Shown here: in pieces, positions 1 to 13,234 of the stretch | Layout: every line of letters begins with the position of its first letter | Numbering within the stretch: position 1 is the first letter of the stretch | IMG/VR virus record: IMGVR_UViG_2850778813_000008 | Reading direction: 5' to 3' (one strand) | Length of the DNA stretch: 13,234 bases | Origin: a virus | Taxonomy: Duplodnaviria; Heunggongvirae; Uroviricota; Caudoviricetes | Position numbers and translations under genes: made by a program | Notes under the pieces: generated by a model | Database searches by the model: none | What the model saw: the letters and a program-made list of their open reading frames with translations, nothing else | Told to the model about the DNA's origin: nothing

Positions 1-846
1 CTACGATAACCGCGCATTCAACATGGCTATCTGTTCGTCGTTCATGTCATCAATCCACATACCGTAAATTTCATACACCATTTGCGCAGTTTCATGCCCC
101 ATCTGGCTGGCTATAAATGCCGGGTTCGCTCCTGCCGTCAACAGCCAGCAGGCAAAAGTATGTCGCGTATGGTACGGATTACGGCGGCGAATACCAGCAC
201 GTTTTACTGCTGCATTCCATCTTGCACCCAAACTGCTTACCGAGTAATAAGGTTTCTGTTTTTCGTTACACACCCTGGGCATGAAAACAAAATGCAGTTT
301 TTGCTTTTCAGTTCTGCCGTACTCCCGATGATAAAAAGTGATTTCGCTTTTGCGATGATGCCCGGTCAGTTTGTATTGCTCCTTCAGTGCTTCAAGAGCC
401 GGCTGCAGTAATGTTACCGTCCGGATCCCGGCATTTGTTTTTGGGGGACCGAACATATCAAGTATCGTCAGGTTTCTTCTGACATTCACAATTCCCTTCT
501 CGAAATCCACATCCTCCCACGCCAGAGCTGCCAGTTCCCCGTGACGAAGCCCGGAGTAAACGGCAAATTTCCACAAGTTTTGGCTCTGTCCTTTTTCACT
601 TTCCATTAATGCATTGAATTCTGTTTTAGATAACGGGTCAGGTTTTATTCTGTTTCGCTGTAATTTTTTTACTCCTTCAAATGGTTTGGTTGATATAAAT
701 CCCGACTGATACGCAAAACGTAACAACGAACAGAGCAGGGCGATATAGTTATCAACTGTGCGCACGATTCTTCCTTTTTTGTTGGATCTTGGATTATCTA
801 GGTAAAGCGTTTCTCCATGCAGCAGTTCATTCCGGTAGTTTAAGAT
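1..846 (-). pseudogene. Phage-type tyrosine recombinase (integrase), 5'-truncated by IS600; C-terminal catalytic domain intact
   Basis: Minus-strand frame open from the IS600 boundary (846) to a stop at 1-3; C-terminal region has tyrosine-recombinase box II signature HTRHTFACWLL...MGHETAQMVYEIYGMW and upstream RHGELAALAWEDVD. Track ORF 1..765 starts at an internal GTG; the frame continues upstream without stops to the IS600 left end, so the N-terminal part is missing. Confidence 0.7.
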
Positions 847-1241
847 TGAGGTAGCCTGAGTTTAACGGACACTCCTTCCTGAAATAGAATGGCATCAGAA
901 GGAGCTAATAATGAGCAGAAAAAACCAACGTTACTCTAAAGAGTTCAAAGCCGAAGCTGTCAGAACGGTTCTTGAAAATCAACTTTCGATCAGTGAAGGC
1001 GCTTCCCGATTATCCCTTCCTGAAGGCACTTTAGGACAATGGGTTACCGCCGCCAGAAAAGGGCTCGGTACTCCTGGTTCCCGCACGGTGGCTGAACTGG
1101 AATCTGAAATTCTGCAACTGCGTAAGGCGTTAAATGAAGCTCGCCTTGAGCGAGATATATTAAAAAAAGCAACAGCGTATTTTGCACAGGAGTCGCTGAA
1201 AAATACGCGTTAATCGAACAATGGCGACAACAATTTCCCAT
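847..1241 (+). mobile_element. IS600 (IS3 family), 5' fragment only (left IR plus orfA); interrupted by IS629
   Basis: Starts TGAGGTAGCCTGAGTTTAACGGACAC, identical to the left end of the complete copy at 6035; sequence follows the complete copy until ~1241, then IS629 left IR begins. Junction ambiguous over 4 nt (TGAA shared). Confidence 0.8.
911..1213 (+). CDS. IS600 OrfA (IS3-family transposase N-terminal HTH protein)
   Basis: 100-aa ORF MSRKNQRYSKEFKAEAVRTVLENQ... recalled as IS600 orfA; differs from copy at 6099-6401 at two residues (R/C, A/V). Confidence 0.85.
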   Translation: MSRKNQRYSKEFKAEAVRTVLENQLSISEGASRLSLPEGTLGQWVTAARKGLGTPGSRTVAELESEILQLRKALNEARLERDILKKATAYFAQESLKNTR

Positions 1242-1295
1242 TGAACCGCCCCGGGAATCCTGGAGACTAAACTCCCTGAGAAAGAGGTAAACAGG

Positions 1296-1622
1296 ATGAC
1301 TAAAAATACTCGTTTTTCCCCCGAAGTCCGTCAGAGGGCGATTCGTATGGTTCTGGAAAGTCAGGGCGAATATGACTCACAGTGGGCGGCAATTTGTTCC
1401 ATTGCCCCAAAGATTGGCTGTACACCGGAGACTCTGCGTGTCTGGGTACGCCAGCATGAGCGGGATACCGGAGGCGGTGATGGCGGGCTCACCACCGCTG
1501 AACGTCAGCGTCTGAAAGAGCTGGAACGTGAAAATCGTGAACTGCGCCGCAGTAACGATATCCTTCGCCAGGCTTCCGCTTATTTTGCGAAGGCGAAGTT
1601 CGACCGCCTCTGGAAAAAGTGA
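1296..1622 (+). CDS. IS629 OrfA
   Basis: 108-aa [36 protein letters not shown]..., HTH-type IS3-family orfA; ends W-K-K-stop over an A-rich run just before orfB. Confidence 0.8.
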
Positions 1623-2509
1623 TGCCACTGCTGGATAAGCTGCGTAAGCTGTACGGGGTCGGACCGGTATGCAGTGAACTACATATTGCCCCGTCAACGT
1701 ATTACCACTGTCAGCAACAGCGACATCATCCTGATAAACGCAGTGCCCGTGCGCAGCGCGATGACTGGCTGAAGAAAGAGATACTGCGTGTATACGATGG
1801 GAATCATCAGGTATACGGTGTGCGTAAAGTCTGGCGTCAGTTGTTACGGGAAGGTATCAGAGTGGCCAGATGCACTGTGGCACGTCTCATGGCGGTTATG
1901 GGACTTGCCGGTGTTCTCCGGGGTAAAAAGGTCCGTACGACCATCAGCCGGAAAGCCGTTGCCGCAGGCGACCGCGTAAACCGTCAGTTCGTGGCAGAAC
2001 GACCTGACCAGCTGTGGGTGGCTGATTTTACTTACGTCAGCACATGGCAGGGCTTCGTCTATGTGGCGTTCATCATTGATGTGTTTGCCGGATACATCGT
2101 GGGGTGGCGGGTCTCATCGTCCATGGAAACGACATTCGTGCTGGATGCTCTGGAGCAGGCGTTATGGGCCCGTCGACCGTCCGGCACGGTCCATCACAGT
2201 GATAAAGGTTCTCAGTATGTATCGCTGGCCTACACACAGCGGCTTAAGGAAGCCGGATTACTGGCATCAACAGGAAGTACAGGCGACTCGTATGACAACG
2301 CGATGGCGGAGAGCATCAATGGTCTTTACAAAGCGGAGGTAATACACCGTAAGAGCTGGAAAAACCGTGCAGAAGTGGAACTGGCCACACTCACGTGGGT
2401 GGACTGGTATAATAATCGACGATTGCTGGAAAGGCTGGGCCATACTCCTCCGGCAGAAGCAGAAAAAGCTTATTATGCTTCCATCGGAAACGATGATCTG
2501 GCAGCCTGA
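1619..2509 (+). CDS. IS629 OrfB (DDE transposase catalytic domain; normally expressed as OrfAB by -1 frameshift)
   Basis: 296-aa ORF in -1 frame relative to orfA, overlapping its stop; contains DDE-type region (...WVADFTYV..., ...HHSDKGSQY..., ...YDNAMAES...). Confidence 0.85.
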
Positions 2510-2551
2510 GTTCACAGATAAAACACTCTCCAGGAAACCCGGGGCGGTTCA

Positions 2552-3449
<898 letters not shown>

Positions 3450-3596
3450 TGGAGCACCTGTGTTGTTCTGAGGTGAGCATATCACCTCTGTTCAGGTGGC
3501 CAAATTCAGTGTGCCACTTCAGCCCGAAAGGGCGGGGAGCAGTCACACATCTGTTTCCGATAGCCCCGTTCTAATGCTACACTCTTTGATATTTTT

Positions 3597-4283
3597 ATGA
3601 CCCCAATAAACATATTTATGACAGTTGCTGATTTCAAACGGCCCAAATTGGAGCTCCCAAACGGGGCAAACAAACTACTACTGCACTCTTGCTGTGCTCC
3701 ATGTTCCGGTGAGGTGATGGAGGCGCTTCAGGCCTCGGGAATCGACTACACCATCTTTTTCTACAACCCGAACATTCATCCTCAGAAAGAGTATTTAATT
3801 CGTAAGGATGAGAATATTCGCTTTGCTGAACAACACGGCGTGCCGTTTATTGATGCTGATTACGACACAGACAACTGGTTTGAACGAGCCAAAGGAATGG
3901 AATGGGAGCCCGAACGAGGGATCCGTTGCACCATGTGTTTTGACATGCGTTTTGAGCGGACAGCGCTGTACGCCGCTGAAAATGGTTTCAGTGTGATCAG
4001 CAGTTCACTGGGCATTTCACGCTGGAAAAATATGCAGCAGGTTAACGACTGTGGGCGGCGAGCCGTCGCGCATTATCCGGGCATGGTGTACTGGGATTAT
4101 AACTGGCGCAAGCAGGGAGGCTCGTCCCGTATGATTGAAATCAGCAAGCGCGAAAAATTCTATCAGCAGGAATATTGTGGCTGTGTGTATTCTCTGCGCG
4201 ATACCAATCTACACCGCAAATCTCAGGGACGCCCTCTTATCAAAATTGGTCAACTCCACTACGGTAAAGAAGAGAAGGAGTGA
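3597..4283 (+). CDS. QueH-like protein (DUF208 / epoxyqueuosine reductase family), tentative
   Basis: 228-aa ORF with [11 protein letters not shown] motif near N-terminus plus downstream CTMCF and EYCGCVY cysteine motifs, as recalled for the QueH/DUF208 family. Start uncertain (ATG 3597 or 3618); no strong SD at either. Confidence 0.5.
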
Positions 4284-4304
4284 TTTTATGGGGCACCTTT
4301 CTGA

Positions 4305-4334
4305 TTGATTTCATATTGGCGAGGTAAGTAGAAT
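4305..4334 (+). promoter_or_regulatory. Candidate sigma70 promoter for the hok transcript (TTGATT-N18-TAGAAT)
   Basis: TTGATT at 4305-4310 and TAGAAT at 4329-4334; would place transcript start ~4340, just at the 5' fold-back element and ~170 nt upstream of hok. Confidence 0.35.
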
Positions 4335-4338
4335 GACT

Positions 4339-4352
4339 GCGGGTGCTTGAGG
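4339..4352 (+). promoter_or_regulatory. hok mRNA 5' element complementary to the 3' end (fold-back inhibition-type pairing partner)
   Basis: GCGGGTGCTTGAGG (4339-4352) is near-perfectly complementary to CCTCAACGCACCCGC at 4723-4737 (one extra G), ~385 nt apart, flanking the hok ORF. Confidence 0.45.
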
Positions 4353-4510
4353 CTATCTGCTTCAGGCATGAACACTAAAAGGCAGATAGAGAAAAGCCCC
4401 AGTTAACATTACGCGTCCGGCAAGACGCTTAACATTAATCTGAGGCCAATTTCATGCTTTGCACATGTAGGTTAGCCTCTTACATGCCGAAAGGCAAGGA
4501 GAAGCAGGCT

Positions 4511-4666
4511 ATGAAGCAGCAAAAGGCGATGTTAATCGCCCTGATCGTCATCTGTTTAACCGTCATAGTGACGGCACTGGTAACGAGGAAAGACCTCTGT
4601 GAGGTACGAATCCGAACCGGCCAGACGGAGGTCGCTGTCTTCGTAGACTACGAATCCAGGAAGTAA
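4511..4666 (+). CDS. hok: Hok/Gef-family type I toxin (HokD/RelF-like)
   Basis: MKQQKAMLIALIVICLTVIVTALVTRKDLCEVRIRTGQTEVAVFVDYESRK: N-terminal TM helix and conserved LCE..R.G..EVA.F..YE tail; from memory matches E. coli HokD/RelF except the last ~7 residues. AGGAGA SD-like sequence 9 nt upstream. An in-frame upstream ATG at 4454 gives the 70-codon track ORF (mok-like position). Confidence 0.8.
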   Translation: MKQQKAMLIALIVICLTVIVTALVTRKDLCEVRIRTGQTEVAVFVDYESRK

Positions 4667-4722
4667 GAGTGACCGGGCGGGGAGCTGATCCCATCCCCGC
4701 CCACCTCTGATGTGTCAGGCAT

Positions 4723-4737
4723 CCTCAACGCACCCGC
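4723..4737 (+). promoter_or_regulatory. hok mRNA 3' element complementary to 5' element at 4339-4352
   Basis: CCTCAACGCACCCGC pairs with GCGGGTGCTTGAGG; position just upstream of the terminator matches hok-family mRNA architecture. Confidence 0.45.
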
Positions 4738-4743
4738 ACTTAA

Positions 4744-4786
4744 CCCGCCCATCGCTGTGATCTCTCAGCGTTTCGGCGGGTTTTTT
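4744..4786 (+). terminator. Rho-independent terminator-like structure downstream of hok
   Basis: CCCGCC (4744-4749) pairs GGCGGG (4775-4780) with inner CGCTG/CAGCG helix, followed by TTTTTT (4781-4786). Confidence 0.45.
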
Positions 4787-4806
4787 GTTGTTTATTTCCG
4801 GTGAAT

Positions 4807-4834
4807 TTGATTCGCGCACCTTCGCAGATAGAAT
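4807..4834 (+). promoter_or_regulatory. Candidate sigma70 promoter (TTGATT-N16-TAGAAT) upstream of the 4916 operon
   Basis: TTGATT 4807-4812, TAGAAT 4829-4834; same hexamer pair as the candidate at 4305. Confidence 0.3.
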
Positions 4835-4915
4835 CGACTCACTTAAGTAGCGCGCAGGGAGAAGAGGGATGGACCCCGAACAGGGGAGAGCTATTTATCT
4901 GGAAGGATTCTGAAG

Positions 4916-5203
4916 ATGAAAATCGAAGAATTGCGTGAAATTTTTAGTGAAAATGGCCTCTATGCTGTGCGCGTTGAGAATGGAGCGATTGTCAGCCATT
5001 GCCGCATTAGATGTTTGCAATCTCAACAAAGGAAGAGCGGTGCTGTGTTATTTTATTTTTGTAATGGACTTCTGACGGACGGTTTTATTTTGCGTGAGGA
5101 CGAATTTGTCACATCATTACGGGTTTTGAAAGAGATTGGTTTTAAGGCTGGTTTTCTGCTTTTGCTGAAGAATAAACTCATCTACAATCTTGAGCAGGAT
5201 TGA
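4916..5203 (+). CDS. Hypothetical small prophage protein (95 aa)
   Basis: ORF with GAAGA upstream, overlapping the next ORF by 14 nt (translational coupling); occupies the position of rem in Qin-type prophages (positional inference only). Confidence 0.4.
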   Translation: MKIEELREIFSENGLYAVRVENGAIVSHCRIRCLQSQQRKSGAVLFYFCNGLLTDGFILREDEFVTSLRVLKEIGFKAGFLLLLKNKLIYNLEQD

Positions 5204-5840
5204 ACTCCTGCTGTGTAACACCGTGCCACCGGAGAAAGCCGATGGCCATATACAACTGATCAAACAAACCTCTTCCGGATTACTTCTCCCGGCGACGCCG
5301 GAGAGTTGCGATTTTCTGCATCAAATCAAAACAGGTGAGTGGATACACGCAGACTTTAAGCGTGTGCGTAACTACGCATTCCACAAGCGTTTTTTCAAAC
5401 TCCTGCAACTGGGATTCGATTACTGGACTCCGATCGGTGGGGCGATTACGCCTCGCGAACGAGAACTGGTATCAGGCTTCGTTGAGTACCTGTGCGAATC
5501 AGTAGGCCGGGAACATACGCCAGCTCTGAGCGAAGCCGCAGAGCAATATCTGAATACAGTTGCGACACGCAGAACCCGAGATACAGCATTGCTAAAGTCG
5601 TTTGAGGCTTTCCGCGAGTGGGTAACCATTCAGGCCGGATTTTACACCGAGCATATTTATCCGGACGGTAGCCGTGGGCGCAGGGCGAAATCCATCTCGT
5701 TTGCGAATATGGACGAAACCGAGTTTCAGCAGGTTTATAAATCTGTGCTGAATGTACTGTTGAACTGGATCCTGTTCCGTAAATTTTCCTCTCCGGAACA
5801 AGTCGAAAATGTGGCCGCGCAGCTACTGGAGTTTGCGTAA
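5190..5840 (+). CDS. Prophage nin-region protein, possibly DUF1367 family (tentative)
   Basis: 216-aa ORF, stop overlaps next start (TAATG at 5838-5842); family assignment from weak recollection and gene order, not verified. Confidence 0.45.
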   Translation: MSRIELLLCNTVPPEKADGHIQLIKQTSSGLLLPATPESCDFLHQIKTGEWIHADFKRVRNYAFHKRFFKLLQLGFDYWTPIGGAITPRERELVSGFVEYLCESVGREHTPALSEAAEQYLNTVATRRTRDTALLKSFEAFREWVTIQAGFYTEHIYPDGSRGRRAKSISFANMDETEFQQVYKSVLNVLLNWILFRKFSSPEQVENVAAQLLEFA

Positions 5841-6034
5841 TGGTGGATTTACGTAAAGCGGCGCGGGGGCAGATGTGCACCGTCAGAATTCCTGGCTACT
5901 GCAATCACGATCCGGAAACGTCTGTGCTGGCGCATTACCGACTGGCGGGTAAAAACAAGCGATTACACCAAAGAAGAATTACGCCTGATGCATGCAGAAG
6001 GTGTTTTTCGCACGCAAGAAATCTGGAGAAAGGA
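5840..6034 (+). pseudogene. ybcO-like (DUF1364) gene remnant: internal ~100-bp deletion/frameshift, then interrupted near its 3' end by IS600
   Basis: N-terminus MVDLRKAARGQMCTVRIPGYCNHDPETSVLAHYRLAG resembles recalled YbcO N-terminus; after RLAG homology moves to another frame (...EGVFRTQEIWRKEGYL-stop resembles the YbcO C-terminal tail) and that frame's TGA overlaps the Q-like ATG once IS600 is removed. Stop of track ORF 5840..6037 is the TGA of the IS600 left IR. Confidence 0.45.
6032..6034. repeat. Target-site duplication GGA (left) of IS600 copy 2
   Basis: GGA immediately left of IS600 IRL; identical GGA at 7299-7301 right of IRR. Confidence 0.6.
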
Positions 6035-6098
6035 TGAGGTAGCCTGAGTTTAACGGACACTCCTTCCTGAAATAGAATGGCATCAGAAGGAGCTAATA

Positions 6099-6401
6099 AT
6101 GAGCAGAAAAAACCAACGTTACTCTAAAGAGTTCAAAGCCGAAGCTGTCAGAACGGTTCTTGAAAATCAACTTTCGATCAGTGAAGGCGCTTCCCGATTA
6201 TCCCTTCCTGAAGGCACTTTAGGACAATGGGTTACCGCCGCCAGAAAAGGGCTCGGTACTCCTGGTTCCCGCACGGTGGCTGAACTGGAATCTGAAATTC
6301 TGCAACTGCGTAAGGCGTTAAATGAAGCTTGCCTTGAGCGAGATATATTAAAAAAAGCAACCGTGTATTTTGCACAGGAGTCGCTGAAAAATACGCGTTA
6401 A
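6099..6401 (+). CDS. IS600 OrfA
   Basis: 100-aa ORF, near-identical to 911-1213; A-rich slippery run (ATTAAAAAAAG) near 6350-6357. Confidence 0.85.
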   Translation: MSRKNQRYSKEFKAEAVRTVLENQLSISEGASRLSLPEGTLGQWVTAARKGLGTPGSRTVAELESEILQLRKALNEACLERDILKKATVYFAQESLKNTR

Positions 6402-6436
6402 TCGAACAATGGCGACAACAATTTCCCATTGAAGCG

Positions 6437-7255
6437 ATGTGTCAGGTATTTGGTGTATCCAGGAGCGGTTATTACAACTGGGTACAGCATGAACCCTCAG
6501 ACAGAAAACAAAGTGATGAGCGGCTAAAACTGGAGATTAAGGTGGCACATATCCGCACTCGCGAAACATATGGAACCCGGCGGCTCCAGACGGAGCTGGC
6601 AGAGAATGGCATCATCGTTGGTCGTGACCGACTGGCACGTCTTCGTAAGGAGCTAAGGCTACGCTGTAAGCAGAAACGCAAGTTCAGAGCGACTACGAAC
6701 CCGAACCACAATCTGCCAGTTGCGCCAAATCTGCTGAACCAGACGTTCGCTCCTACAGCACCAAATCAGGTCTGGGTGGCGGACCTGACGTATGTTGCCA
6801 CACAGGAGGGATGGTTGTACCTCGCTGGCATCAAAGATGTTTATACGTGCGAAATTGTCGGCTACGCCATGGGAGAGCGCATGACAAAAGAGCTGACAGG
6901 TAAAGCCCTGTTTATGGCGCTCAGGAGCCAGCGCCCACCTGCCGGGCTAATCCACCACTCTGATCGAGGTTCACAGTACTGCGCATACGATTACCGGGTC
7001 ATACAGGAGCAGTCTGGTCTGAAAACATCAATGTCGCGTAAAGGTCACTGTTACGACAACGCTCCGATGGAAAGCTTCTGGGGAACGCTGAAAAATGAGA
7101 GCCTGAGCCACTATCGTTTTAATAACCGGAATGAAGCCATCTCAGTAATACGGGAATACATTGAGATTTTCTACAATCGTCAGCGTCGTCACTCTCGTCT
7201 GGGGAATATCTCCCCGGCAGCCTTCAGGGAAAAATATCATCAGATGGCTGCTTAA
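6437..7255 (+). CDS. IS600 OrfB (DDE transposase domain)
   Basis: 272-aa ORF with ...WVADLTYV..., ...HHSDRGSQY..., ...YDNAPMESF... motifs. Confidence 0.85.
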   Translation: MCQVFGVSRSGYYNWVQHEPSDRKQSDERLKLEIKVAHIRTRETYGTRRLQTELAENGIIVGRDRLARLRKELRLRCKQKRKFRATTNPNHNLPVAPNLLNQTFAPTAPNQVWVADLTYVATQEGWLYLAGIKDVYTCEIVGYAMGERMTKELTGKALFMALRSQRPPAGLIHHSDRGSQYCAYDYRVIQEQSGLKTSMSRKGHCYDNAPMESFWGTLKNESLSHYRFNNRNEAISVIREYIEIFYNRQRRHSRLGNISPAAFREKYHQMAA

Positions 7256-7298
7256 AAAAAGAACAAATGGTAGTGTCCGCTATTGCCAGTACACCTCA

Positions 7299-7301
7299 GG
7301 A
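7299..7301. repeat. Target-site duplication GGA (right) of IS600 copy 2
   Basis: See 6032-6034. Confidence 0.6.
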
Positions 7302-7310
7302 AGGTTATTT

Positions 7311-7865
7311 ATGATTTACCCAACAAATACAGGCAAAAGCGGGGAACACCTTCGTCTCACCACGCTGGAAAGTGTCTGGATTCAGGGAAAACTGCGCATG
7401 TGGGGGCGCTGGTCGTATATTGGCGGCGGTAAGACGGGGAATATGTTCAACCAGTTGTTGGCCTCTAAAAAGCTGACAAAAACGGCAATTAACGAGGCGC
7501 TCCGGAGGATGAAAAAAGCAGGTCTGAACAAGTCTGAACTTGAGGCTTTTTTGCGGGATATGATTAACGGTAAGCAAAAGAGCTGGCTGGCGCATTGTAC
7601 TGATGCAGAGGCGTTATGTATTGATCGGGTCATAAGTGAGGTGCTGGCAGAGCATCCAGGATTGATTAGCGTCCTTCGGCAACGGTATGAGGGGCGGGGG
7701 ATGACCAAACGCAAAATGGCTGAACTGCTGAATGATGCACACCCGAAATGGAGTTTAAGAACCTGTGAAAGACGCATTGAGCATTGGCTAAAGGTGGCAG
7801 AATTTATTTTGTACAAACCAATGGTTATGGCTTTTGGTATAGAGAAAAAAGTTATTGCTTTTTGA
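7311..7865 (+). CDS. Putative late-gene antitermination protein Q-like (184 aa)
   Basis: ORF from ATG 7311 containing LESVW...WGRW, resembling the LE.WG.W motif recalled for Q-family proteins; followed by terminator and tRNA cluster as in lambdoid Q-PR'-tR' regions. Track ORF 7161..7865 starts inside IS600 and is rejected as the native start. Confidence 0.5.
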   Translation: MIYPTNTGKSGEHLRLTTLESVWIQGKLRMWGRWSYIGGGKTGNMFNQLLASKKLTKTAINEALRRMKKAGLNKSELEAFLRDMINGKQKSWLAHCTDAEALCIDRVISEVLAEHPGLISVLRQRYEGRGMTKRKMAELLNDAHPKWSLRTCERRIEHWLKVAEFILYKPMVMAFGIEKKVIAF

Positions 7866-7942
7866 CGTAAAAACTGCTTCAATTCTTGTACGCTTCGCAA
7901 AGCTGTACCGCGAGGCGAATAGCAGACATGGACATTTGAAAG

Positions 7943-7966
7943 AGCCCGCTTTATGCGGGTTTTTTT
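7943..7966 (+). terminator. Rho-independent terminator (tR'-like) downstream of Q-like gene
   Basis: AGCCCGC-TTTAT-GCGGGT hairpin followed by T7 run (7960-7966). Confidence 0.6.
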
Positions 7967-8054
7967 ATACCTGAAAAACGGCACAGGACGTTAAACGTGC
8001 TGGTGGTCAGATGAGTTTGCAGATGTGATGACATATGGTTATTATTCTGCCTCC

Positions 8055-8131
8055 GGCCCTTTAGCTCAGTTGGTCAGAGCGAGCGACTCATAATCGCCAG
8101 GTCGCTGGTTCAAGTCCAGCAAGGGCCACCA
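8055..8131 (+). tRNA. tRNA with CAU anticodon, Ile2 (ileX/ileZ-like) by similarity; Met not excluded
   Basis: Hand-folded cloverleaf: acceptor GGCCCTT/AAGGGCC, anticodon loop CTCATAA (CAT at 8089-8091), T-loop TTCAAGT, 3' CCA encoded; resembles recalled E. coli ileX. Confidence 0.75.
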
Positions 8132-8132
8132 A

Positions 8133-8209
8133 CCACCACTAGCTCATCCGGATAGAGCATCAACCTTCTAAGTTGACGGTGCGAGGTTCGAGTCCTCGGT
8201 GGTGGGCCA
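8133..8209 (+). tRNA. tRNA-Arg (UCU)
   Basis: Acceptor CCACCAC/GTGGTGG, anticodon loop CTTCTAA (TCT at 8167-8169), T-loop TTCGAGT, CCA encoded; unusual C1-G72. Confidence 0.7.
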
Positions 8210-8211
8210 GC

Positions 8212-8287
<76 letters not shown>

Positions 8288-8290
8288 TAT

Positions 8291-8351
<61 letters not shown>

Positions 8352-8423
8352 TGAAGTGGCACACTGAATTTGGCCACCTGAACAGAGGTGATATGCTCAC
8401 CTCAGAACAACACAGGTGCTCCA

Positions 8424-9592
<1,169 letters not shown>

Positions 9593-9600
9593 CCACTTCA

Positions 9601-10843
9601 GGGCGTATGCGAACGCTTTCGCCAGTTCTGAGTGTCGCGACAGGGTTTTCATCTTTTCACGCAGCCAGCTTTCCAGGGATTTCAGCAGCGGTTTCGTTTT
9701 CAACTGACGTTCGGCAAGGCGCTGCTCCGCCGTCATTCCCCTTATCTCTGCCTCGATGGCGTACAGTTCGCCGATCCGTTTCAGCGCTTCCTCCGTCAGG
9801 GCTGACGGGGTGCGAACGTGCACATCGTGGATTTTACGGCGGGCGTGAGCCCAACAGGCGGCTTCCGTTATCCGGCCATCCCGGTACAGCTCGTTGAACC
9901 CGGCGTATGCATCCGCCTGCAGTACACCACTGAACCCCGCAAGATGGGTCTGCGGATGGATGCCTTTTCTGTCCGGGCTGTAAGCGAACCACACCGCCGG
10001 CGCCAGCGTTGACCCGGCGTTACGGTCGTCACGAACGTAGGTCCATAACCGCCCGGTCTTCGTTTTCTTATTGCCTGGCAACAGCACCGGGACAGGCGTG
10101 TCATCAGCATGGAGCTTACCGTCAGTCAGCACATAGTCCTGAAGCGCTTCTTCCAGCGGTGACAGTAGCCGGCAGCATGCATCCACCCAGCCCGACAGCA
10201 GTGAACGACTCAGCTCCACGCCCTGGCGGCCGTACATTTCAGACTGGCGGTACAGCGGGGTGTGCTCTGCATACTTTGAGATCAGCACGCGGGCCAGCAG
10301 CCCCGGTCCTGCGATACCCCGCTCGATGGGCCGTGAAGGCGTGGGGGCCTGCACGATGGCATCGCACTGAGTACAGGCATGCTTTTCACGTACAGTCCGG
10401 ATAACCCGGAAGACGCTGCGCATCAACTCCAGCTGTTCGGCGGCATCCTCACCCAGATAGCTCAGTGAGCCTCCACATTCCGGGCAGCATGACGCTGCCG
10501 GCAGCAGCCGTTTTTCATCGCGGGGGAGTGATTCGGGGAACGGTTTGCGGGTGCGGGTTTGACGCAGCGGGCGCTGCACGGCCGGGTCGTCAACCCGACC
10601 GGTAAGGGTATCACTTTCTTTCTGAAGTGCCTTCAGGTCAGCTTCCATCTGTGCGATACGACGGGAGACTTTTTCGGAGCGGCTGCCGAAGTTCATCCGG
10701 CGCAGCTTATCCAGCTGTGCCTGCAGATGGTCTATTTCGCGTTCACGCTCGTTCAGCTTTTCCAGCAGGGCACGGTTCAGCGCCTCCTGTTCGGCAAGGA
10801 GACGTTTCAGTGCATTGATATCGTCAGGAAGTGAGCTGCTCAT
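9601..10843 (-). pseudogene. IS66-family transposase TnpC, C-terminally truncated by IS911
   Basis: 414 native codons with CxxC...CxxC zinc-finger-like region (CCPECG...CTQCD) and DDE-type core; last native residues ...[11 protein letters not shown], then the frame runs into IS911 (track ORF 9527..10843). Confidence 0.75.
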
Positions 10844-10891
10844 ACCGGGTATATTACCAGGCTCATTCAGCGTCGACCAGGATAAAGAGGC

Positions 10892-11239
10892 TTACAACAT
10901 AGTCAGGGACGTAAGCAGTCTTTTAGGCTGCCGCCAGTCGATACCTTCAAGGAGCATCGCCAGCTGTGCCGGTGTGAGGAACACTTTGCCATCCCGGGCT
11001 GACGGCCAGGCGAAGCGGCCGCGCTCCAGCCGTTTGGTCAGCAGACACAGTCCATCGCCGGTAGACCAGAGGAGCTTTACCTGACTGCCATTACGCCCAC
11101 GGAAGATAAAAACGTGACCTGACATCGGATCGTCTTTCAGCGTCGTCTGCACCTTTGCCGCCAGGCCGTTGAAGCCATTTCTCATATCGGTGATACCGGC
11201 AACCAGCCAAATTTTGGTCCCGGAAGGTAACGGGATCAT
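10892..11239 (-). CDS. IS66-family TnpB (Orf2)
   Basis: 115-aa [29 protein letters not shown]... typical of IS66 orf2; start overlaps tnpA stop. Confidence 0.75.
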   Translation of the reverse strand: MIPLPSGTKIWLVAGITDMRNGFNGLAAKVQTTLKDDPMSGHVFIFRGRNGSQVKLLWSTGDGLCLLTKRLERGRFAWPSARDGKVFLTPAQLAMLLEGIDWRQPKRLLTSLTML

Positions 11240-11637
11240 CGCTTCAGTTCCTGTATCAGCAGAGTCAGGAGCTTTTCGCTGACATTGCCATTGAAGCGGA
11301 GCGTCCCGTGCCGGAACGTTACCTCACAGCTGATACTGAGGGTTTCCGGATCCTCTGCGAGCGATTCTGGCTGTTCGGCAGCTGCATCGAGAGTCACAGG
11401 AAGTAGCTGGGGGCTCTCTGAAGAAGGTAATAGCAGCTTTCCCTCGCGCCATTGTTGTCGCCATTTGAACAACAGATTGGCGTTAATGCCATTTTCAAGA
11501 GCAAGTTTTGAGATGGATATCCCGGGTTCACAGGAGGCAGCAACGAGCTGCTGTTTAAATTCGGGAGGATAATTAGGGCAGCCTTTTCGCCTGCCGGGAT
11601 TCACATTTTTCTGCATATCTGACACTTTGGTTCCCAC
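11236..11637 (-). CDS. IS66-family TnpA (Orf1)
   Basis: 133-aa ORF immediately upstream of and overlapping tnpB, HTH-like N-terminus. Confidence 0.7.
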
Positions 11638-11708
11638 TACTTATTTGGTGGACACCACTTTGTCTAATTCGTCAGATTCTGACCAGACGGTTCAGGCTGT
11701 ACGCTTAC

Positions 11709-12091
11709 AGTTGATGCAGTCGTTGTACGACTGGATACAGTTGCAGAGGAAAACGCTGTCGAAACATGCGGAGATGGCGAAGGCGTTCGACTATATCCTG
11801 AATCACTGGAATGCGCTGAACGAGTTCTGTCGTGACGGCTGGGTGGAAATAGACAACAACATCGGTGAAAACGCGTTACGATCGGTGGCGGTTGGAAGAA
11901 AAAATTATCTTTTTTTCGGCTCAGACAAGGGAGGAGAAAGTGCGGCGATCATCTACAGTCTGCTGGTCACCTGCAAACAGAACGAAGTGGAGCCGGAGGA
12001 CTGGTTGCGCGAAGTGATCGAGAAGCTCAATGACTGGCCGTCGAACCAAGTGCATGAACTGCTGCCCTGGAACTTCTCGTCTGTAAAATAA
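11709..12091 (+). pseudogene. IS66-family TnpC C-terminal fragment
   Basis: See element 11709-12123; track ORF 11627..12091 includes non-homologous upstream codons. Confidence 0.55.
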
Positions 12092-12123
12092 TCCTTACGC
12101 TACGTACTTCTCGGGGCGCTTAC
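11709..12123 (+). mobile_element. Second, diverged IS66-family remnant: 3' end of a tnpC plus right terminal repeat
   Basis: Plus-strand ORF tail ...[58 protein letters not shown]...ELLPWN resembles an IS66 TnpC C-terminus and is diverged from the neighbouring element; ends ...CTCGGGGCGCTTAC (reverse complement GTAAGCGCCCCGAG) at 12123. Left boundary approximate. Confidence 0.55.
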
Positions 12124-12304
12124 GATTTATCGCCGTCAGCGGGAGCTGAAGGAAGAGCTGAATAGTCTGAAGGATTTGAATTCGGTTAGGAATTTTATCG
12201 TGGAATAACAGAAGCTGCGGCACGTCGTATGCAGGAACGTGCCGCGGTTGGCTGGTAAACTTTCGATAGTGCGAGTATTGAATGATTTCTAGGCGTTATC
12301 GATT

Positions 12305-13234
12305 TGAACCGCCCCGGGTTTCCTGGAGAGTGTTTTATCTGTGAACTCAGGCTGCCAGATCATCGTTTCCGATGGAAGCATAATAAGCTTTTTCTGCTTC
12401 TGCCGGAGGAGTATGGCCCAGCCTTTCCAGCAATCGTCGATTGTTATACCAGTCCACCCACGTGAGTGTGGCCAGTTCCACTTCTGCACGGTTTTTCCAG
12501 CTCTTACGGTGTATTACCTCCGCTTTGTAAAGACCATTGATGCTCTCCGCCATCGCGTTGTCATACGAGTCGCCTGTACTTCCTGTTGATGCCAGTAATC
12601 CGGCTTCCTTAAGCCGCTGTGTGTAGGCCAGCGATACATACTGAGAACCTTTATCACTGTGATGGACCGTGCCGGACGGTCGACGGGCCCATAACGCCTG
12701 CTCCAGAGCATCCAGCACGAATGTCGTTTCCATGGACGATGAGACCCGCCACCCCACGATGTATCCGGCAAACACATCAATGATGAACGCCACATAGACG
12801 AAGCCCTGCCATGTGCTGACGTAAGTAAAATCAGCCACCCACAGCTGGTCAGGTCGTTCTGCCACGAACTGACGGTTTACGCGGTCGCCTGCGGCAACGG
12901 CTTTCCGGCTGATGGTCGTACGGACCTTTTTACCCCGGAGAACACCGGCAAGTCCCATAACCGCCATGAGACGTGCCACAGTGCATCTGGCCACTCTGAT
13001 GCCTTCCCGTAACAACTGACGCCAGACTTTACGCACACCGTATACCTTGTGATTTTCATCGTATACGCGCTGTATCTCTTTCTTCAGCCAGTCATCGCGC
13101 TGCGCACGGGCACTGCGTTTATCCGGATGATGTCGCTGTTGCTGACAGTGGTAATACGTTGACGGGGCAATATGCAGTTCGCTGCATAGCGGTCCGACCC
13201 CGTACTGCTCACGCAGCTTATCCAGCAGTGGCAT
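12305..13234 (-). mobile_element. IS629-like element, inverted, running off the window end
   Basis: Right end TGAACCGCCCCGGGTTTCCTGGAGAGTG... at 12305; orfB on minus strand to 13234. Protein differs from copy 1 at several positions (REQ vs RKL, PLC vs PVC, IQRVYDENHK vs [10 protein letters not shown]). Confidence 0.85.
12347..13234 (-). CDS. IS629 OrfB (DDE transposase domain), copy 2
   Basis: 295-aa ORF, ATG at the last three bases of the window (minus strand); orfA lies beyond the window. Confidence 0.8.
   Translation of the reverse strand: MPLLDKLREQYGVGPLCSELHIAPSTYYHCQQQRHHPDKRSARAQRDDWLKKEIQRVYDENHKVYGVRKVWRQLLREGIRVARCTVARLMAVMGLAGVLRGKKVRTTISRKAVAAGDRVNRQFVAERPDQLWVADFTYVSTWQGFVYVAFIIDVFAGYIVGWRVSSSMETTFVLDALEQALWARRPSGTVHHSDKGSQYVSLAYTQRLKEAGLLASTGSTGDSYDNAMAESINGLYKAEVIHRKSWKNRAEVELATLTWVDWYNNRRLLERLGHTPPAEAEKAYYASIGNDDLAA

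Follow-up and report, generated by a model that had tools for sequence, protein, structure and literature searches.

How did two different IS66-family insertion sequences (ISs) come to abut on opposite strands at positions 9601–12123 of a 13,234-nucleotide stretch of viral DNA (IMG/VR record IMGVR_UViG_2850778813_000008; Caudoviricetes)? A first-pass annotation of this whole stretch, hereafter the window, had left two answers side by side: one element inserted into another, or adjacent relics. We identified the elements as ISEc22 and ISSfl3, placed their boundary at 11708/11709, and found a related chromosome, CP026866.1 (locus L017), in which a complete ISEc22 still lies within ISSfl3. We read the region as what is left of an insertion-sequence nest with three layers, located within a decayed lambdoid prophage beside sitABCD, on a Shigella boydii-type chromosome. 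We place the probability of this reading, including the order of events proposed below, at roughly 0.92.

Elements were named by near-identity to a reference, for which the ISfinder convention is approximately at least 95% nucleotide identity. Comparison of 9601–12123 with complete E. coli genomes by megablast gave thousands of matches. The best of these (99.6–99.8% identity) had been labelled 'IS66-like element ISEc22 family transposase', along with tnpA and tnpB, by the Prokaryotic Genome Annotation Pipeline (PGAP), and more than 280 E. coli records matched the ISEc22 part at at least 99%. The element assignments are near-identical megablast matches with E = 0 and are not due to chance. The ISEc22 part of the window comprises the following features.

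9601–11708, minus strand: ISEc22 (IS66 family), element nt 1–2108 of 2441; lacks the final 333 bp, to which the right inverted repeat belongs
11236–11637, minus strand: ISEc22 tnpA, 133 aa, intact (NF047595, E 7.5e-28; PF01527)
10892–11239, minus strand: ISEc22 tnpB, 115 aa, intact (NF033819 IS66_TnpB, E 3.2e-35; PF05717)
9601–10843, minus strand: ISEc22 tnpC, truncated, codons 1 to ~415 of 512 (NF033517, E 2.2e-105)
11687–11708, minus strand: ISEc22 left inverted repeat, GTAAGCGTACAGCCTGAACCGT on the element strand, with the CGCTTAC terminus at 11702–11708

All features that the first-pass annotation had reported were confirmed at the positions it gave. It had described a minus-strand tnpA-tnpB-tnpC element, and the reading frames (11637–11236, 11239–10892 and from 10843) and their IS66 profile matches bear this out. 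The three genes are consecutive and the tnpA stop overlaps the tnpB start, the arrangement of the IS66 family (ORF, or open reading frame, table; NCBIfam; Pfam). An intact ISEc22 in E. coli AL.H8 (L001) is 2441 bp long, has GTAAGCG...CGCTTAC ends, encodes a TnpC of 512 aa and is flanked by an 8-bp duplication, AAATCAAT. Positions 9597–11709 of the window are 99.76% identical to 1497–3609 of L001 in pairwise BLAST, and the tnpA coding sequence annotated there equals the window tnpA in length. The window copy thus resembles ISEc22 in nucleotide identity (99.8%), gene order and GTAAGCG terminus, but differs from it in lacking the last 333 bp, with the right inverted repeat and ~97 C-terminal tnpC codons. 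Its left repeat pairs with the other end, GTAAGCGTGCAGCAAGAACCGT, of the L001 copy; the right repeat, deleted in the window, is present in CP026866.1 and L001.

The window tnpC covers only positions 4–312 of 387 in the NF033517 profile. It contains LZ_Tnp_IS66, zf-IS66 and DDE_Tnp_IS66 (positions 1–241 of 284) and no DDE_Tnp_IS66_C (PF13817). As the gene is cut at 9601 by IS911, no full-length TnpC is encoded, and the window ISEc22 is a truncated IS66 member that is not active and cannot transpose by itself. Its reading frame continues into IS911 as far as a stop at 9527, which creates a chimeric ORF of 438 aa (9527–10843). This ORF is encoded on one record, CP026814.1 (GCA_002949535.1), which is 100% identical to the window. 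Separately, tnpC was called as 372 aa in CP026866.1 (11685–12803) and in L005 (8066–9184), compared with 438 or 512 aa; in CP026866.1, the C that L001 has at plus-orientation nt 460 is replaced by A, which may create a tnpC stop.

The plus-strand neighbour is the end of a second element, and is followed by the DNA into which that element appears to have inserted.

11709–12123, plus strand: ISSfl3 (IS66 family) 3' remnant, nt 2340–2754 of 2754; tnpC codons 407–533, stop 12089–12091
11709–11716, plus strand: AGTTGATG, ISSfl3 nt 2340–2347, the surviving copy of the 8-bp target duplication of ISEc22
12100–12123, plus strand: ISSfl3 right inverted repeat, ...GGGGCGCTTAC
12124–12304, plus strand: DNA originally targeted by ISSfl3, comprising the prophage DUF4376 (tail-fibre region) gene at its 3' end and the spacer towards sitD

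Matches to window 11710–12290 at 99.3–99.8% were annotated 'IS66-like element ISSfl3 family transposase' and were found in E. coli of the EIEC (enteroinvasive E. coli) type and on many Shigella flexneri and S. boydii plasmids. The tail is 99.76% identical to an intact 2754-bp ISSfl3 with GTAAGCGCCCC... ends in S. flexneri pAR-0425-2 (L002), and 100% identical to the copies in S. boydii CDC 3083-94 (L007) and CP026866.1. The likeness extends over 415 bp to the same terminal base, and the right repeat at 12100–12123 pairs with the left end GTAAGCGCCCC... of the L002 copy. The encoded fragment matches the last 116 positions (271–386 of 387) of NF033517 with E 6.7e-39 and contains PF13817 (DDE_Tnp_IS66_C). 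The first-pass annotation had called it a C-terminal fragment of a different IS66-type transposase, ending in a GTAAGCG-type terminal repeat at 12123. Strong IS66 homology, 55% identity between the ISEc22 and ISSfl3 transposases and the presence of the motif alignment it had quoted all agree with this call, and the terminal repeat proved to be the ISSfl3 right inverted repeat.

The window copy is like the named ISSfl3 in its 99.8–100% identity over nt 2340–2754, its right inverted repeat and its TnpC C-terminus (the end of DDE_Tnp_IS66 plus the IS66 C-terminal element). Unlike a complete ISSfl3, which has 2754 bp, both ends and three genes, it retains only the last 415 bp, with no tnpA, tnpB or left end. 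Named ISSfl3 is common on Shigella virulence plasmids, whereas this copy is chromosomal and lies in a prophage remnant. The 181 bp to its right match E. coli CFSAN029787 (L013 7001–7181) with 100% identity; there the sequence is uninterrupted and falls inside a DUF4376 coding sequence upstream of sitDCBA.

Pairwise BLAST to the intact copies set the element boundary at 11708/11709. The best ISEc22 matches all stopped at window 11708–11723, with 11708–11712 as the stopping point for independent copies. ISSfl3 matches began at element nt 2339/2340 and ended at window 12123–12136, those to independent copies at 12123. The CGCTTAC near 11700, which the first-pass annotation had thought could be either terminus or coding sequence, is the ISEc22 end (11702–11708). 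Nor is 11640–12123 contiguous with any single element: ISEc22 runs to 11708 and ISSfl3 begins at 11709. Accordingly, the first ~27 codons of a 154-aa ORF at 11627–12091 are read-through of the ISEc22 end and not transposase coding sequence. A 143-aa version of this junction ORF (11660–12091) occurs on 12 contigs, including CP001063.1; the only named source is Shigella boydii (CDC 3083-94). We also considered a longer ISSfl3 end or a shared site, suggested by matches reaching 8–13 nt past 12123 (H26, H27 and H31–H55), and dropped the idea after the one inspected (H27, L014) turned out to be a weak gapped extension.

The window carries only one side of ISEc22, and so cannot itself show insertion into ISSfl3. 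We therefore predicted the protein that would span the lost junction: 417 aa, made up of ISSfl3 TnpC 1–409, which extends across the duplicated AGTTGATG, and then VSVQQEPY, encoded by the right end of ISEc22. Eight variants were built to cover three polymorphic residues. One of the eight exists exactly in a collection of 15 billion proteins, on a single 4.68-Mb NCBI contig, which is CP026866.1. The predicted reciprocal junction, searched as DNA, had no matches in GTDB representatives, JGI metagenomes, plasmids or E. coli; the exact-protein search alone recovered it.

The CP026866.1 gene for the predicted protein sits at the same chromosomal locus as the window. The order there is IS911 (8594–9842), ISSfl3 nt 963–2347, a complete ISEc22 on the minus strand, and ISSfl3 nt 2340–2754, with AGTTGATG on both sides of ISEc22 (...gcgtccAGTTGATG/GTAAGCGTGCAG... 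and ...CTTAC/AGTTGATGcagtcg). The ISEc22 copies of CP026866.1 and the window share four substitutions relative to L001: 429G, 2079C, 2083A and 2333T. An 8-bp target duplication is typical of the IS66 family. Such duplications flank ISEc22 in CP026866.1, L001 and L015 (E. coli plasmid pCE0007a, AGAGATGC); in the window one side alone is visible. These sequence comparisons show that CP026866.1 and the window have the same insertion of ISEc22 into ISSfl3 tnpC, and support the first of the two answers in the first-pass annotation.

Taken by itself, the window could suggest that the two relics merely lie next to each other and that an unrelated deletion or recombination joined an ISEc22 end to an ISSfl3 tail, since it retains one ISEc22 side and no visible target duplication. 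CP026866.1 makes this very improbable: there, a complete ISEc22 lies between ISSfl3 nt 2347 and nt 2340, with AGTTGATG duplicated and the single-nucleotide polymorphisms shared. The region is also almost wholly made of repeats, a setting in which assemblers may collapse IS copies and create false junctions. That the junctions are such artefacts is nevertheless hardly credible, as each of them joins unique internal element positions and not shared repeat sequence. Moreover, the block of IS911, ISEc22 remnant, ISSfl3 tail and flank is 99.7–100% conserved in the nine other loci that we fetched, so that ten loci from separate assemblies, several of them closed chromosomes of more than 4.2 Mb, have the same structure.

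The CP026866.1 locus has a further insertion of its own. Its ISEc22 is broken 5 nt from the left tip, inside the left terminal repeat, by a 1517-bp ISSso6 (IS110 family; 13666–15182), and CT is duplicated there relative to the empty site in the window. Six of seven independent ISSso6 copies (CP026866.1 and L018–L023) are flanked as (A/G)CGCT / ISSso6 / CTTAC, with the variants TCACT (L020) and ACGCC (L023). The apparent ISSso6 target, RCGCTTAC, contains the conserved IS66-family terminal heptamer CGCTTAC, which makes IS66-family ends natural ISSso6 landing sites. In addition, a 409-aa protein (P0003), an ISSfl3-like TnpC ending at the ISEc22 insertion codon, was considered as a sign of an insertion hot spot; the idea was rejected because the protein results from a nonsense mutation in an unrelated decayed copy. 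In L024–L027 (E. coli STEC_MHI813 and others), this decayed ISSfl3-like tnpC stops after residue 409 and the frame resumes downstream, which we judged a coincidence.

The element beside which the rest of the nest was lost lies immediately to its left.

8351–9600, plus strand: IS911 (IS3 family), complete, 1250 bp; its right end (right inverted repeat, IRR) abuts the truncated ISEc22 at 9601

This element is 99.9% identical over 1–1250 to copies annotated 'IS3-like element IS911 family transposase', and the earlier statement that tnpC is cut by IS911 was correct. Its flanking triplets, TCC to the left and GGG to the right, do not match and no 3-bp target duplication is visible, so the two sides were not originally contiguous; a rearrangement of the flanks would be expected to leave such a mismatch. 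The left junction, which cuts a tRNA-like sequence downstream of Q, is identical in the window and CP026866.1. On the right, IS911 is followed by ISSfl3 nt 963 in CP026866.1 and, in the window, by ISEc22 at 333 bp from its right end. With the same left junction and a different right flank, the window corresponds to CP026866.1 from which one contiguous 1718-bp segment, directly adjoining the right end of IS911, has been removed. The triplets in CP026866.1 (TCC and CCT) do not match either, which indicates that this chromosome is already a deletion derivative without the prophage late region and ISSfl3 nt 1–962.

These comparisons suggest an order of events. ISSfl3 would first have inserted into a prophage tail-fibre-region gene (DUF4376). 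ISEc22, in our wording 55%-diverged, then entered ISSfl3 tnpC in the opposite orientation at codons 407–409, duplicating AGTTGATG. Stepwise loss beside the IS911 right end would have followed, the first loss taking the prophage late region and ISSfl3 nt 1–962, a state kept in CP026866.1. The window lineage finally lost a further 1718 bp, namely ISSfl3 nt 963–2347 and the last 333 bp of ISEc22. Sequence comparison demonstrates the second and fourth of these steps.

The deletion was probably the work of IS911, either by intramolecular transposition from one end or by recombination with a second copy that was present transiently. Nested losses anchored at one IS end are the outcome of one-ended adjacent deletion. 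Both IS-adjacent (one-ended) deletions and IS–IS recombination are well known from Shigella and E. coli genomes rich in ISs. Like those deletions, the present ones have one IS end fixed, DNA beside the other end progressively lost, and flanks without a target duplication; unlike them, they are seen here as end products alone, and their mechanism is putative. The same nest could also have been eroded after a second IS911 had entered ISEc22 tnpC in the same orientation, followed by homologous recombination between the direct copies. Copies of IS911 are plentiful and mobile here, with two in the window and three in CP026866.1, and the IS911/ISEc22 junction of L008 and L010, which has different DNA to its left, needs IS911–IS911 recombination. 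None of the strains seen has an IS911 copy on each flank; both mechanisms yield one and the same product and nothing speaks directly against this route, which we hold to be possible but less likely than not.

In L008 and L010 (~6100–6695), the left side of IS911 is the mpaA-ycjG-tpx-tyrR side instead of the prophage, an arrangement that indicates a later IS911-mediated inversion or deletion. Their left flank ends in GGG and was considered as the missing ISEc22 piece; it was rejected, as its DNA comes from the mpaA side, and the GGG shared with the right flank is probably due to chance. The window itself holds two inverted IS911 copies (2552–3522 and 8351–9321), 100% identical over 971 nt, the first truncated by IS629 at 2552. 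This pair could flip the 4.8-kb prophage segment between them. A test for a past inversion between the copies at 2552–3522 and 8351–9600 gave no evidence of one: it would bring together the triplets GGC and GGG, restoring no target duplication, and the missing ISEc22 end does not appear at 3523.

After the losses, ISEc22 lacks its right end and ~97 C-terminal TnpC residues, and all that remains of ISSfl3 is one end with 127 codons. The left end of ISEc22 and the right end of ISSfl3 probably cannot pair as transposon ends, because both outer tips point rightwards in window coordinates. No function is expected for either relic, and neither can transpose on its own. The surviving tnpC pieces look complementary, ISEc22 being cut at ~aa 415 and the ISSfl3 tail starting from homologous aa 407; we treated this as a coincidence, since the two are on opposite strands and are separated by tnpA and tnpB.

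Several points weigh against our reading of the region. The names ISEc22 and ISSfl3 were taken from PGAP labels of near-identical copies and not from direct ISfinder comparison. Searches for the ISEc22/ISSfl3 junction in complete E. coli genomes, PLSDB plasmids, GTDB representatives and JGI metagenomes gave no match, so a single Shigella lineage supplies all the support. No sequence that we reached contains the ISSfl3 left end or the target duplication of that element (expected GATTTATC), and the original simple insertion of ISSfl3 into the DUF4376 gene is thus deduced from one junction. Finally, the two deletion mechanisms are indistinguishable from the sequence.

Beyond the nest, the whole window is a heavily IS-ridden lambdoid prophage remnant between ttcA and uspF, an interval that we take to be the position of Rac in K-12, with sitABCD immediately beyond the window. 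Prophage genes (queH, hok, rem, DUF1367, ybcO, the Q antiterminator and tRNAs) border the block on one side, and sitDCBA-uspF-ompN-ydbK on the other. Window 1–8350 holds an integrase fragment, queH, hok, rem, DUF1367, ybcO and Q. A phage-type tRNA cluster, with tRNA-Met(CAT), tRNA-Arg(TCT) and tRNA-Thr(TGT), occupies 8055–8350, downstream of the antiterminator gene. A fourth tRNA-like sequence (8289–8350; Gly-TCC-like by eye, with no ARAGORN call) apparently has its 3' end cut by the IS911 left end. In addition to IS911, the window contains an IS600 whose 5' part, from ~842, is cut by IS629 near 1240, a second IS600 from ~6030, and IS629 at 1241–2551. One further IS629 lies beyond the ISSfl3 target DNA.

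12305–13234, minus strand: IS629, running off the window; inverted repeat of 1622–2553; not part of the nest

This copy separates the ISSfl3 remnant from sitD; L006 and L010 have it, and it is absent from L004, L005, L007, L009, L011 and L012. Comparison with S. boydii CDC 3083-94 (L007), where the site is empty, shows a 3-bp duplication, ATT. It is a later, recent and strain-polymorphic simple insertion.

Other IS66-family nests were seen in passing. Plasmid pCE0007a (198–6881) carries a triple nest: an unnamed IS66 element interrupts an ISEc23 transposase gene and has its own tnpA interrupted by an intact ISEc22, which is flanked by the perfect 8-bp duplication AGAGATGC. This nest likewise has ISEc22 inside an IS66-family element, but it differs from that of the window in host elements and site and shows no later IS911 clipping. 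On the E. coli FDAARGOS_943 chromosome (L014 2661–7990), a complete ISSfl3 abuts a second IS66-family element, apparently without a 5' end, and both lie inside the split yiaA/yiaB gene. ISEc22 was also seen next to an ISCro1-family transposase gene. Together with the window nest, these cases raise the idea that IS66-family elements land in one another beyond chance or neutral survival (self-targeting). We regard this as unlikely; survival bias is the default explanation of such nests, because insertions into dead ISs are harmless.

The stretch is ordinary mobile-element debris and is fully explained. Both elements were already named, and the arrangement is already contained in published Shigella boydii genomes; a literature search on ISSfl3, ISEc22 and nested IS66 elements found nothing specific to an ISEc22/ISSfl3 nest. 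The result matters little beyond annotation. The proper labels are IS911 (complete), ISEc22 (3'-truncated) and ISSfl3 (3' remnant), and the chimeric ORFs at 9527–10843 and 11627/11660–12091 are junction artefacts, not genes. The strain series, running from CP026866.1 through the window to the L008/L010 rearrangement, together with the polymorphic IS629, offers a clean and datable case in which a prophage and IS nest, adjacent to the sitABCD iron/manganese transporter, eroded stepwise beside a single IS911 end. Within this Shigella boydii group, the junctions could be used as lineage markers.

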